Source: Candidatus Poriferihabitaceae bacterium (GTDB lineage Bacteria > Pseudomonadota > Gammaproteobacteria > Arenicellales > Poriferihabitantaceae). Taken from it: a DNA stretch of 64,000 nucleotides. The notes beneath the pieces were generated by a model that saw nothing but the letters and a program-made list of their open reading frames with translations, did no database searches and had not been told where the DNA came from. The stretch covers positions 1,835,890-1,899,889 of the forward strand of contig OZ245364.1 of NCBI GenBank assembly GCA_965226545.1, given 5' to 3'. Each line of letters begins with the position of its first letter. Position 1 is the stretch's first letter. Both the position numbers and the translations under genes were made by a program. Shown piece after piece: positions 24,069-32,102 of this stretch.

Positions 24069-25309
24069 GCGTCGACCGCGCCAAACACCAACGTGCCGTT
24101 GGTGCCGCCAAAGCCGAAGGAATTCGACAGCGCATACCGCACGCGCATCTTGCGCATGCCGTCGGCGACAAAATCCAAATCGCATTCGGGGTCTTGGTCG
24201 ACCAAATTAATCGTCGGCGGAATTTCGCCGTGATATATCGTCATTGCGGTCATCACCGCCTCGACACCGCCGGCCGCGCCGAGCAGATGCCCAATCATCG
24301 ATTTATTCGAACTGACCGCCAATTTCGATGCATGCGCGCCGAAGGCGGTTTTAATCGCTTGGGTTTCGGCGATGTCGCCAATCGGCGTCGAGGTGCCGTG
24401 GGCGTTGATGTAATCAATTTGCGTCGGCGCAATCGCGGCGTTTTTAAGCGCACTTTGCATGCAGCGCACCGCGCCCTCGCCGCCCGGCGCCGGCGCGCTG
24501 ATGTGATGCGCATCGCCGCTCATGCCGAAGCCGTTGAGTTCGGCGTAAATTCGCGCACCGCGCGCGCACGCGTGTTCATATTCTTCGAGCACCATCACGC
24601 CCGCGCCTTCGCCCATCACAAAGCCGTCGCGCCCAATATCCCACGGACGGCTGGCGTGCGTCGGTTCATCATTGCGCGAACTCAACGCGCGCGCCGCGCT
24701 AAACCCGGCGACCGAAGTCGGCGAAATCGGCGCTTCGGCCGCGCCGGCGACCATCGCATCGGCGTCGCCGTATTCAATCATCCGCGCCGCATCGCCGATG
24801 GCGTGGGTGCCGGTGCTGCAGGCGGTTACCATCGCAAGATTGGGGCCTTGCAAGCCGTATAAAATCGACAGATTGCCGGACACCATGTTGGTAATCGTCA
24901 TCGGGATGTAGAACGGCGAGACGCGGCGCGCGCCTTTGGCCGCGTATAACGCGGTGGTGGCTTCGATGGTGTTGACGCCGCCGATGCCGGAGCCGATGTA
25001 TACGCCGATGCGCGGCGCATTGGCGGCGTCAATTTTCAGGTTGGAATCCTCGATGGCTTCGATGCCGGCGGCGATGCCCAATTGCATAAACCGATCCATC
25101 TTGCGCGCCTCACGCGCGCCCAACTTTTCCGCCGCATCAAATTCGCGAATTTCGCCGGCGATGCGACACGGCAACCCGCTCGCATCGAAACAGGAAATCG
25201 TCGAGATGCCGCTCTGCCCGGCGCACATCGCCCGCCAAGTGCCGGGCAAATCCACCGCCAACGGCGAAACCGCGCCCAGCCCGGTAATTACAACGCGTCG
25301 CTTCATCAA
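24065..25309 (-). CDS. fabF: 3-oxoacyl-ACP synthase II
   Basis: MMKRRVVITGLGAVSPL...ACSTGTHAIGDA...HGTSTPIGD...GHLLGAAG. Confidence 0.95.
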   Translation of the reverse strand: MMKRRVVITGLGAVSPLAVDLPGTWRAMCAGQSGISTISCFDASGLPCRIAGEIREFDAAEKLGAREARKMDRFMQLGIAAGIEAIEDSNLKIDAANAPRIGVYIGSGIGGVNTIEATTALYAAKGARRVSPFYIPMTITNMVSGNLSILYGLQGPNLAMVTACSTGTHAIGDAARMIEYGDADAMVAGAAEAPISPTSVAGFSAARALSSRNDEPTHASRPWDIGRDGFVMGEGAGVMVLEEYEHACARGARIYAELNGFGMSGDAHHISAPAPGGEGAVRCMQSALKNAAIAPTQIDYINAHGTSTPIGDIAETQAIKTAFGAHASKLAVSSNKSMIGHLLGAAGGVEAVMTAMTIYHGEIPPTINLVDQDPECDLDFVADGMRKMRVRYALSNSFGFGGTNGTLVFGAVDA

Positions 25310-29143: not shown

Positions 29144-29341
29144 TTATTCCTCCGCGGCGTCCTCTTCGCTTTTGAAGTGAACAAGTTTCTTGCCGCGATA
29201 AAAACCGTCCGCGGTGATGTGATGCCGCCGATGTTGTTCGCCGCTGACCGGATCAATCGACAAGGTCTTCGCTTTAAGCGAATCATGCGACCGCCGCATG
29301 TTGCGACGAGACGGGGTTTTGCGGCTTTTTTGGACTGCCAT
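29144..29341 (-). CDS. rpmF: 50S ribosomal protein L32
   Basis: [22 protein letters not shown]... from the ATG at 29341. Confidence 0.9.
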
Positions 29342-29392
29342 AATTGCCTCTGCGGATTTGGTGCTGCGGATTGCTGTTGCGTGGATTGCGCG

Positions 29393-29403
29393 ATTATACA
29401 CAA
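29393..29403 (-). promoter_or_regulatory. Promoter-like TTGTGTATAAT upstream of rpmF
   Basis: The minus strand reads ttgtgtataat ~50 nt upstream of the rpmF ATG. It is the same 11-mer as at 563 and 846. Confidence 0.4.
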
Positions 29404-29430
29404 CTCGTTGGGGGTGTGCTGATGCATTTA

Positions 29431-30762
29431 TTAATACATCTGGATTTGTGCATCACGCGCTTTTAATGCGGCGTTTAAGTATTCCATTGGACGGTCGCCT
29501 TTGATTGAGTTGCAGTTGCCGCAGAGTAACTGCAGATTATCCAGTTGCCATTGCCCGCCTTTTGAGTCGGGGTAAATGTGGTCGATATGAAAATGGCGCG
29601 GATGGTCGAAGTGAGTTCGGCAGCCGTTGCAATTGCCGGCTTGTTCGCCATAAAAATATTTGCGCACTTTTGCTTTGCTCCAATCGAACTTTTTTAAATC
29701 GGAACGGTGCGGCAAGGTTTCGCTTGCGACAAAATCGGTAAACAATCGTTTGACATCACCGTCATAACTTAACCGTTCGGCAACCAATTTTGCCGCGACA
29801 TCAGATATATCGACGCCAATCCAATTGCGATTAAGATTTTGCGCGGCAACGCAGGTGGTTGCGCAACCGCAAAACGGGTCCATCACAACATCGCCTTCGT
29901 TGGAACTTGCCTTGATGATTCGGTCGAGTAACGCCAACGGTTTTTGCGTCGGGTAACCGGTGCGTTCGAGTTTTGATATTTGTCCGCCGCTTGGAATGTC
30001 GTTCCACCAATCCGGCACAACTTTGCCTTTGCCAAAATTGGCTTCGACTTGTTCGTCGCTTCGTTCGCCCGGATAGTTGCGCATAATTCCTTTTGACCCT
30101 TGTTTGCCTTCGGTGAATTTGCGTCGGCTTAAAAATGATTCGCTGTAATCGACGCGCACCTCATCCTTATTAAATTCCGCCGCATTGGATTTTGCATAAA
30201 AAAGTATCGCATCGTGTTTACGCGGGAATTGTCTTTTGATGTTCGACGGCCCGGTGTAACACCAAACAATTTCATTGCGAAAGTTTTCCTTGCCGAAAAT
30301 GCAATCCAACAAAATCCGCAAATAACCGTTGGCGGTTGCATCGCAATGCAAATACAAATTGCCCGTGTCTTTTAATACACGATGCATCTCGATAATCCGT
30401 TGCGCCATAAACGTTAAATACGCCTTCATCGGCGCACCGTGAATCGCGCCGACAATTTGGATATACGAAAATAAATCGGCATGCTTATCCGCATACGCCA
30501 ACAACCGCTCATCAACATCATCATTCCAAGTCCAAATGTCGTGAAAGCCCGCTTCGATTTTCTTTTTGCCGCCCTTACCCGTGCCAATCGGTGCAGAGTA
30601 AATCCGCTTCGAATTAAACGGCGGGTCGAGATAAATCAAATCGACGCTGCCCGAGTTTAACCCGCGCATCACATCGAGATTGTCGCCGACGAATAACTTG
30701 TTGGCGGAAGTTGCCACGGTCGAGAATGCCTCAATTAAGGTTGACAATTCCCAACACCGCAC
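29431..30762 (-). CDS. Beta-class (N6A/N4C-type) DNA methyltransferase fused to a C-terminal HNH endonuclease domain
   Basis: Motif [13 protein letters not shown] lies near the N-terminus and motif [29 protein letters not shown] lies later, which is the beta-class order. The C-terminus [48 protein letters not shown] is an HNH with a CxxC...CxxC Zn finger. Start ambiguous: GTG at 30762 (ORF track) or in-frame GTG at 30717 preceded by GAGG. Confidence 0.8.
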
Positions 30763-30915
30763 GGTGTCGGGTCTTGCTTACTCAATGAGGCATTGAATTC
30801 CCGCTATTTCCACAGCCGCCGGTGACGGCGACAGACGGAATCGTCGTTGCCGACCATTCCACTACGGTGTTGTATTCACGGGAGGCCCGACGGGCGAGAC
30901 CTCATTAAGTAAGCG
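30717..30915 (-). ncRNA. Structured 5' leader of the MTase-HNH gene with alternative pairings (riboswitch/attenuator-like, class unassigned)
   Basis: Segment B (30776..30794) can pair with C (30900..30914; 15 bp) or with A (30725..30739; 14 bp plus 1 bulge). A contains the SD-like GAGG. The internal hairpins are 30837..30860 (GCAA loop on the minus strand), 30815..30832 and 30750..30771. Two positions are G-U on the minus strand but A-C mismatches on the plus strand, so the transcript orientation is minus. Confidence 0.5.
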
Positions 30916-30921
30916 CGACAA

Positions 30922-30950
30922 ATGTTACCCATTACGCCGCCCGCCGTCAA
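30922..30950 (-). promoter_or_regulatory. Sigma70-like promoter for the MTase-HNH leader
   Basis: The minus strand has TTGACG (30950..30945), a 17-nt spacer and TAACAT (30927..30922). The predicted start is a few nt upstream of the 5' strand of the outer helix (30914). Confidence 0.4.
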
Positions 30951-31031
30951 TCGCCACCCTTTCCCTTTACCGTCAATATCCCCTACAATGCCGCCCAACC
31001 ATCACCCGTCGCCAAACCAACAACGCACACA

Positions 31032-32102
31032 ATGTCCAACCCGAACCCATCGCAAACCACCACCGACGACCTGCGCATCGCCGCCATCACTCGCGTCGTC
31101 AACCCCGCCGAATTGGTTGCGCAATTGCCGATTGACGATGCGGCGATGCAGACCACCATCCAAACCCGCAACGCGGTTGGCGACATACTCGATAAACGCG
31201 ACGACCGATTGTTGGTGATTGCGGGGCCGTGTTCGATACACGACACAAAAGCCGCGCTCGATTACGCCGACCGATTGTTGCCGTTGATGAAAAAACACAG
31301 CGCTGACTTGTTGCCGGTGATGCGGGTTTATTTTGAGAAGCCGCGCACCACCGTTGGCTGGAAAGGGCTCATCAACGACCCGGATTTGAATGACACTTTT
31401 GACATTAATAAAGGGCTGGCGTTGGCGCGTCAACTATTGCTGGAATTAAACCGCAAAGGCGTCGCCGCCGGCACCGAATATTTGGACATCATCACGCCGC
31501 AATATGTCGCCGACCTGGTTTCATGGGGCGCGATTGGTGCGCGCACGACTGAGAGCCAAGTGCATCGTGAATTGGCGTCGGGGTTGTCGTGTCCGGTGGG
31601 GTTAAAGAACGGCACCAACGGCAACTTGGATATCGCCGTCGACGGCATTCGTGCGGCGAGTCGGCCGCATCATTTTTTATCGCTGACCAAAGCCGGGCAA
31701 TCGGCGATTTACACCACCACCGGCAACGAGCAATGCCACATCATTTTGCGCGGCGGCAAAAAACCGAATTACGATGCGGTGAGCGTCGATGATGCATGTA
31801 CAAAATTGCGCGACGCCGGTTTAAGCGAACGGGTGATGATTGATTTCAGCCACGCCAACAGCCGCAAACTGCCGGAGAATCAACCGGCGGTATGCGCCGA
31901 TGTCGCCTCGCAAATCGCGCGCGGCGATGCGCGCATCATCGGCGTGATGATTGAAAGCCACTTGGTCGGCGGACGACAAGAGGTTATCGATGGTCAAGCC
32001 AAAGTGTATGGGCAGAGCATTACCGATGCCTGCGTCGACATCGAGACGACTGAAAAAATGTTTGATGAGTTGGCGCAATCGGTTCGCGCGCGGCGTGGTT
32101 AA
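31032..32102 (+). CDS. aroG: 3-deoxy-7-phosphoheptulonate (DAHP) synthase, class I
   Basis: ...LLVIAGPCSIHD...MRVYFEKPRTTVGWKGLINDP...IDFSHANS... The isozyme (F/G/H) cannot be assigned. Confidence 0.9.
   Translation: MSNPNPSQTTTDDLRIAAITRVVNPAELVAQLPIDDAAMQTTIQTRNAVGDILDKRDDRLLVIAGPCSIHDTKAALDYADRLLPLMKKHSADLLPVMRVYFEKPRTTVGWKGLINDPDLNDTFDINKGLALARQLLLELNRKGVAAGTEYLDIITPQYVADLVSWGAIGARTTESQVHRELASGLSCPVGLKNGTNGNLDIAVDGIRAASRPHHFLSLTKAGQSAIYTTTGNEQCHIILRGGKKPNYDAVSVDDACTKLRDAGLSERVMIDFSHANSRKLPENQPAVCADVASQIARGDARIIGVMIESHLVGGRQEVIDGQAKVYGQSITDACVDIETTEKMFDELAQSVRARRG

Follow-up and report, generated by a model that had tools for sequence, protein, structure and literature searches.

In this study, we analysed a structured leader that lies on the minus strand of the window (the whole 64,000-nt stretch of DNA), directly upstream of a gene whose product, P0001, combines an N6/N4 DNA methylase domain with a C-terminal HNH domain (MTase-HNH). 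The similarity of the HNH domain to those of IscB and Cas9d is weak and far below the cut-off. The surroundings of the gene are of housekeeping character: a DAHP synthase gene (31032..32102, plus strand) lies divergently upstream, and rpmF, plsX, fabH, fabG, fabF, mltG, tmk and holB are located downstream on the minus strand. No phage, transposon, integrase or transposase genes were found among the window neighbours. The possibility that the leader is part of the divergent DAHP synthase gene was rejected, since elsewhere the leader travels with its downstream gene into different neighbourhoods. The MTase-HNH protein has thousands of relatives, which in the reference genomes are spread over many phyla and stem almost all from metagenome-assembled genomes of sponge symbionts; a paralogue in the same genome, P0040, is located outside the window.

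A sequence-only reading of the locus had placed a sigma70-like promoter in front of a multi-helix leader and the gene, and these landmarks were recovered (Table 1). The promoter is present with its 17-nt spacer, the core with the GCAA hairpin and the 7-bp hairpin lies where that reading had drawn it, and segment A carries the GAGG in front of the in-frame GTG, which is also the start in the public gene call. The outer helix, which had been given as 15 bp between segments B and C, was found as P1 with 16 bp (30914..30899 with 30791..30776), including two G-U pairs, at -26.1 kcal/mol; it starts 7 nt past the -10 hexamer. No other sigma70-like site occurs in 29300..31100, where 2.3 are expected by chance, so that the count of sites alone is not above chance. 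P2 and P3 are nested inside P1, both inner hairpins and the two single-stranded junctions are nested inside P3, and P4 follows after P1. A tRNA/tmRNA scan gave no match at the site of the leader.

Table 1. Features of the leader and of the downstream gene, in the order of transcription.
Feature	Position	Strand	Basis or remark
Sigma70-like promoter, TTGACG (30950..30945), 17-nt spacer, TAACAT (30927..30922)	30922..30950	-	scan
P1 5' arm (segment C of the sequence-only reading), GCUUACUUAAUGAGGU	30899..30914	-	fold
P2 hairpin, GCCC-GUC-GGGC	30885..30895	-	fold; GUCGGG part invariant in the family
P3 5' arm, partner 30799..30804	30878..30883	-	fold and covariation
Single-stranded junction GAAUACAACA; family consensus AAU-R-Y-AA-N-A	30868..30877	-	invariant columns
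Inner hairpin, GCAA tetraloop	30837..30860	-	fold; region variable in the family
Second inner hairpin, 7 bp, loop UCAC	30815..30832	-	fold
Single-stranded junction GAAAUA; family consensus R-AAUA-N-G	30805..30810	-	invariant AAUA
P3 3' arm	30799..30804	-	fold and covariation
Segment B; 30776..30791 is the P1 3' arm, AAU at 30794..30792	30776..30794	-	pairs with P1 5' arm or segment A
P4 hairpin, CCCGACACC-GUGC-GGUGUUGGG	30750..30771	-	fold; highly conserved; absent from the sequence-only reading
Conserved UUGUCAAC (type ii leaders: UUGCCAAC); possible pairing with the GCAA ending segment B	30740..30747	-	
Segment A, CUUAAUUGAGGCAUU, resembles P1 5' arm; SD GAGG at 30732..30729	30725..30739	-	
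MTase(N6_N4)-HNH gene, GTG start at 30717, 428 aa	29431..30717	-	start from public gene call (P0001)

At -93.1 kcal/mol, the minus-strand fold is more stable than its shuffled versions, which average -71.0 (z -4.64); none of 200 shuffles was as good, whereas the plus strand folds more weakly (z -2.51). In two other leaders, the z values of the folds are -4.4 (L001) and -5.7 (L002). The earlier argument that G-U pairs point to a structure at the RNA level, in the orientation of the methylase gene, holds over the family as well: 13 of the 177 base pairs of P1 in ten leaders are G-U, and the opposite strand is weaker in nine of the ten. The structure is genuine and belongs to the RNA that is read in the direction of the methylase gene.

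In a MAFFT alignment, the 5' halves of the window leader, L001 and L002 were not brought into register. Five type ii leaders were therefore used instead as the seed of a first covariance model, R1, which finds the window leader with an E-value of ~5e-7. R1 misses the leader L207, which was recovered by a second covariance model, R2, built on P2, P3 and P4. In ~670 kb, R2 detects 11 leaders, ten of them distinct; the window leader scores 83.9 bits and is the only copy in the 64-kb window. The ten distinct leaders come from sponge-symbiont assemblies. In A5, an alignment of these related sequences that was fitted to the model, 94.7% of the cells are paired, compared to 37-45% with the partners slid; half of the pairs (22/44) are changed on both sides, a value reached by none of 500 shuffles, and pairing and covariation follow the same trend in alignment A7. 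P1 was also assessed in an alignment-free manner. Duplexes of the leaders' own arms average -27.2 kcal/mol, compared to -11.0 for cross-pairs between leaders (best -18.5), and each arm finds its best partner in its own leader. P1 measures 15-21 bp in all ten distinct leaders. No two copies share the sequence of its arms, and the unpaired junctions and P4 show almost no variation. P3 covaries as well (CCCG:CGGG, CCCAC:GUGGG, CCUGCC:GGCGGG). Invariance of the junction bases extends across two phyla, from the Gammaproteobacteria to L074 (Ca. Multivorans, Acidobacteriota), whose stretch has 68% G+C. The inner part of P3 carries one hairpin in type ii leaders and two in the window type. A pattern of conserved loops and stems that covary freely is typical of functional RNAs and not of transposon ends.

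The order of the elements is constant: a -10 hexamer is followed after 5-7 nt by P1, and P4 is followed after ~30 nt by the start codon. L085, L207 and L086 have homologous TTGAC(G/A)-17-(-10) promoters 5-7 nt before P1; in the remaining leaders, hexamers resembling a -10 box are present. With respect to one hallmark of riboswitches, the loci carry a conserved aptamer-like fold with covariation in the 5' leader. We also considered the P1 arms as programmable guides copied from flanking DNA, and rejected this since the arms can be aligned between leaders and show ordinary compensatory changes. A metagenome scan with a degenerate pattern that fits nine leaders returned human gut and soil false positives, and among the matches listed none scored with R1 or R2; in viral contigs, the same pattern gave 5 chance matches. 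Plasmid and phage collections searched by blastn with the leaders gave no match.

The sequence-only reading could not place the core in any riboswitch class, naming SAM, SAH, cobalamin, TPP, FMN, ZTP, guanidine, c-di-GMP and fluoride, and the Rfam comparison agrees with it. A cmscan of 30400..31300 with all 4227 families of Rfam 15, at E-values up to 10, returned a single chance match outside the element and was negative for these classes as well as for HEARO and ribozymes; cmscan of L001, L051, L074 and L086 against Rfam 15, with the same E-value limit, yielded nothing relevant. Likewise, nothing relevant was found in the literature on a sponge-symbiont RNA motif or on this MTase-HNH fusion. 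Orphan cis-regulatory RNAs, identified by comparative genomics of environmental lineages, include the motif collections of Weinberg and Breaker in Rfam. The leader resembles them in being structured, located upstream of genes, supported by covariation and restricted to particular uncultured lineages, but it is none of those present in Rfam 15. We assign the leader to a family of structured cis-acting RNAs of sponge-symbiont bacteria that has not been described before.

The assumption that the leader is a dedicated controller of MTase-HNH genes was not borne out. Close relatives of the window protein (69-78% identical), all from one long-read sponge assembly, adjoin lepB/rnc, nth, a lytic transglycosylase gene, a glycosyltransferase gene and a DarT-NADAR pair, and each of them has ~200 nt upstream in the architecture of the window (promoter, P1-P4, junction words, UUGCCAAC, SD and start). 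However, ~100 other MTase-HNH genes that were sampled have no leader. Among the leader-less genes are the tandem-array paralogues (L207-L210 and genes 2 and 3 of L217) and a 59%-identical gene of Ca. Spongiihabitans (L216), and 80 distant MTase-HNH loci had no leader by R1 or R2 and no exact junction motifs upstream. In some leader-less MTase-HNH genes the same promoter is followed by a simple hairpin only. Conversely, the leader precedes other genes, which were caught by chance in the flanks of sampled loci: a lipoprotein gene at L207, where promoter and leader are ~80% like those of the window, a reprolysin-like metallopeptidase with a signal peptide at L074, and an HExxH protein with a signal peptide at L051. 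A degenerate short copy at L086 is followed by an ankyrin/Sel1 protein with a signal peptide. A coherent downstream pathway, a further hallmark of riboswitches, is not seen among these genes (MTase-HNH, lipoprotein, reprolysin-like peptidase, HExxH and ankyrin protein). Since the leader is not specific for MTase-HNH, a feedback of the SAM/SAH type is without support. The methylase-HNH cassettes themselves form a family that is amplified in tandem and shifts from one housekeeping locus to another; their copy number varies at one chromosomal slot and they occur in many contexts.

The sequence-only reading had further proposed that segment B pairs in two mutually exclusive ways, either within P1 or with segment A, and that the second pairing hides the SD. 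In the window, this competing helix is real. The P1 5' arm recurs in degenerate form as segment A, and segment B can therefore pair with either of them; the predicted B:A duplex has -18.4 kcal/mol, compared to a shuffle mean of -8.1 (z -3.96), and none of 500 shuffles of segment A was as good. The B:A helix encloses P4, which forms the tip of the alternative B-P4-A hairpin, and covers the SD. It beats shuffles in seven of the ten leaders (z -2.6 to -4.0), is missing in L074 and L207, and is weak in L002. Segment A is nearly identical in four of the seven supporting leaders, which thus represent only ~3 independent lineages (window type, type ii and L051). In these lineages, the B:A pairs are predicted at the same alignment columns. 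On an alignment that was not fitted to these pairs, 75% of the cells are paired, compared to 26-42% after sliding, and six pairs show double changes; as judged from the alignment, covariation gives moderate support to the B:A helix. The competing helix with its partial conservation is, like the structure, its conservation and its placement with respect to promoter and start codon, a feature of the leaders as they stand.

In the MFE folds, the SD is largely free. When the P1 5' arm was blocked, six leaders refolded to one long B-P4-A hairpin in which 10-11 of the 11 bases of the SD region are paired (11/11 in the window). The P1 state is predicted to be favoured over the alternative by 5-12 kcal/mol in six leaders and by ~21 kcal/mol in three, and only in L001 are the two states nearly equal in energy. 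P1 is also transcribed before segment A. As P1 is made first and is more stable, the expected default is ON, with P1 closed and the SD free, and shut-off of the gene would need the 5' arm to be removed or displaced. Of the translational ON/OFF switch suggested earlier, the SD-covering helix stands, recurring in seven of ten leaders, while its absence or weakness in the remaining three and a P1 of 15-21 bp that is favoured by 5-21 kcal/mol speak against the switch. On these models, the leader is a plausible translational switch.

In translational ON riboswitches, such as the add adenine riboswitch of Vibrio vulnificus, P1 has under 10 bp. The leader is alike in that P1 closes a junction in the 5' leader, that the SD region is an alternative partner for the 3' strand of P1, that closed P1 leaves the SD free, and that junctions are conserved while helices covary. 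It is unlike them in its P1 of more than this length, which is predicted to be stable without ligand, in downstream genes without a metabolic theme, in the missing match to any Rfam riboswitch, and in the extra conserved P4 as the tip of the OFF hairpin. The leader as modelled here is at odds with the usual picture of a short P1 that is tipped by a ligand.

Therefore, it is tempting to suggest, at a little less than an even chance, that the leader is a ~205-nt 5' UTR transcribed from the 30950..30922 promoter which represents a new cis-RNA family and acts as a two-state translational gate. The long P1 at the 5' end of the transcript would close a junction of P2 and P3, with P3 bearing the invariant single-stranded bases (AAU..AA.A facing AAUA.G) and the variable inner hairpins; P4 and then segment A, single-stranded and carrying the ribosome-binding site, would follow P1. 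With P1 closed, the SD would be free and the gene would be translated, which would be the default state. With P1 opened or lost, the long B-P4-A hairpin would bury the SD and the gene would be silent. Since the P1 arms differ in every leader, a surface for common recognition can only be the invariant core, which would be the likely site for an effector that sets the balance between both states. Candidate effectors comprise small molecules, proteins and a nuclease that cuts within the A/U-rich junctions. Such a cut would make P1 bimolecular, and the intramolecular B-P4-A hairpin would then win. Switching, its direction and any effector are what we infer. P1 is long and favoured, nothing in the sequence indicates how it would open, and the downstream genes share no pathway that points to a ligand; these points count against a gate, as do the three leaders in which the B:A helix is missing or weak, the ~3 independent lineages behind this helix, and the small set of ten distinct sequences with model-fitted alignments.

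Alternatively, promoter and leader might form a constitutive portable module, in which the 5' helix shields the mRNA from 5'-end-dependent decay and insulates the ribosome-binding site of horizontally acquired genes, and the likeness between segment A and the P1 5' arm would be a by-product of ancestry. We consider this unlikely, although it would agree with a P1 that in all leaders begins within a few nt of the predicted start of transcription and has -22 to -33 kcal/mol, with the occurrence of the same promoter and leader before unrelated genes (MTase-HNH in the window, lipoprotein at L207), with the largely free SD, and with the lack of the alternative helix in three leaders. The 5'-terminal stem-loop of the ompA type is comparable in this respect, being a stable helix at the extreme 5' end of a leader, and the leader likewise stands before unrelated genes; however, the leader has in addition a complex conserved core, invariant junctions and a third segment that competes for one arm. 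A plain stabiliser needs no junction bases that are invariant across phyla, the conserved P4 is not required for it, and there would be no need for segment A to track the fast-changing P1 arms in three lineages.

It is improbable that P1 and the core are released by processing as a small RNA, acting in trans or sequestering a protein, with a downstream gene that is incidental or later silenced by B-P4-A. The closed P1 and the conserved core look self-contained, the A/U-rich single-stranded junctions are possible RNase E sites, and the helix is near the length of an RNase III substrate. However, no terminator was found after P1 or after P4, ahead of the start codon, the spacing to the start codon is fixed, and the P1 arms differ in every copy, so that a common antisense target would not exist.

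Even less probable is a role at the level of DNA, in which the element would be a mobile-cassette end, an insertion of the MITE type or an attC-like folded site tied to the shuffling of MTase-HNH cassettes. The variable copy number of these genes and their many contexts, the inverted ends of the element and a 45-nt direct repeat that flanks the core in the window (z 6.4) would be compatible with it, but in none of the other nine leaders does the long direct repeat reach significance. The Correia/MITE repeats found in mRNA leaders share with the element a size of ~150 nt, inverted ends, a position between promoter and gene, and a long hairpin that RNase III could cut. Unlike in these repeats, the ends of the leader are not conserved between copies, there is no pattern of target duplication, and conservation resides in unpaired bases, the opposite of what transposon ends show; with arms that differ in every copy, one copy in 64 kb and no plasmid or phage match, a MITE- or Correia-like repeat was rejected. 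An integron site of the attC type was rejected as well, since most array cassettes are without the element and no integrase is present among the neighbours; a transposase is likewise missing nearby. Furthermore, the cassettes at L207 and L208 diverge within the promoter and not at P1, and the element is in fixed register with promoter and start codon.

It is scarcely credible that the HNH nuclease-methylase uses the leader as a guide or scaffold RNA, as IscB does with omega RNAs, since the leader is not specific for MTase-HNH: its place directly upstream of an HNH protein is shared with HEARO/omega RNA (RF02033), and the weak HNH similarity and the variable outer arms would fit, but neither HEARO nor another Rfam model matches, the protein has no RuvC domain, the leader is dispensable for most family members (the 59%-identical gene and the array genes among them) and is also used by genes without a nuclease, and the variable arm is base-paired in P1 within the RNA and thus not free to guide.

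If the translational gate is accepted, one may go further and ask what it would respond to. Potentially, the core senses a signal of life in the sponge, either a molecule of the host or its community or a symbiont protein, and gates horizontally exchanged accessory genes across phyla. We regard this as a quite unlikely, more speculative extension. If true, secreted factors of host interaction (proteases, lipoprotein and possibly ankyrin proteins) and mobile methylase-nuclease cassettes would be placed under the gate, and the leader would represent a new riboswitch-like class, a three-segment toggle of 5' arm, 3' arm and 5' arm mimic with a symbiosis-specific regulon. The methylase-HNH cassette family deserves a separate study.

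In summary, if the findings hold, they would define a new structured regulatory RNA family that is absent from Rfam and common to uncultured sponge symbionts of at least two phyla. Its design, with a long P1 and three segments, differs from the textbook layout of a riboswitch. The leader would be placed before genes typical of host interaction and genome defence, and, with its ~200 nt, it would provide a concrete handle on gene control in symbionts that cannot be cultivated, one that may be tested in vitro or with reporters in E. coli.

The MTase-HNH genes, which encode an N6/N4 methylase with a C-terminal HNH domain, behave as cassettes across the loci compared. The slot between the DAHP synthase gene and rpmF holds one copy in the window, at least three in L085 and four in L217 (both comparison loci). 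Copy number also varies between strains at two further slots, and close paralogues are harboured by unrelated housekeeping loci. The family is spread over many phyla, yet it is found almost exclusively in sponge-symbiont genomes. The full fusion was absent from both the reference phages and the reference plasmids that were searched. Toxin or defence-type genes (DarT with NADAR, HicA, MPTase-PolyVal) adjoin MTase-HNH insertions. The HNH domain of the window protein (residues 341-417) matched the NCBIfam IscB HNH (E 8e-8) and Cas9d HNH (E 1e-6) models, both below threshold and far under the NCBIfam cut-off. The similarity is that of an ordinary HNH domain and does not count as evidence for RNA guidance. 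Coordinates are listed in the table.

Coordinates of cassette-associated features in the window and the comparison loci
Feature	Locus	Coordinates	Strand
MTase-HNH cassette region	window	29431-30717	
MTase-HNH cassette region	L085	2501-6320	
MTase-HNH cassette region	L217	7278-12832	
MTase-HNH cassette region	L207/L208	8575-11323	
MTase-HNH cassette region	L209/L210	8607-17181	
Duplicated 38-aa ORF	L210	9888-10004 and 15797-15913	
Direct repeat copies	window	30747-30700 vs 30920-30876	minus
Promoter + short hairpin	L085	3821-3972	
Promoter + short hairpin	L208	8453-8575 and 9880-10000	
Spacer after MTase stop	window	29341-29430	minus
Homologous array spacer	L210	11267-11336	
Homologous array spacer	L207	9940-10000	
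Toxin/defence-type genes near MTase-HNH	L086	1099-2285	
Toxin/defence-type genes near MTase-HNH	L001	6634-6888	
Toxin/defence-type genes near MTase-HNH	L216	9398-9769	

L210 has two copies of a 38-aa ORF that encodes a twin-arginine-like signal peptide and overlaps an MTase-HNH gene at its start. The ORF looks like what remains of a gene for an exported protein that was interrupted when the cassette inserted. In the window, a 45-nt imperfect direct repeat (z 6.4) involves the structured leader, the conserved folded RNA upstream of the gene. One copy spans the leader 5' end through P2 and the other UUGUCAAC into the first codons; a repeat of such strength was seen in the window only. At the L085 and L208 sites, the promoter that the structured leaders have (here TTGACG-17-TAACTT) is followed by a short hairpin alone; this is a leader variant that lacks the conserved core. 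R2, a second covariance model of the leader built on P2/P3/P4, also gave a weak match on the minus strand of the window (24258-24388; 16 bits, E 0.06), within coding sequence at the fabF/mltG overlap; it was set aside as noise.

On the 3' side, the window spacer beyond the MTase stop codon shares homology with the intergenic spacers of the arrays. Within this spacer a perfect TATAAT (29398..29393) is directed into rpmF, and the cassette therefore seems to supply a promoter to any gene downstream of it.
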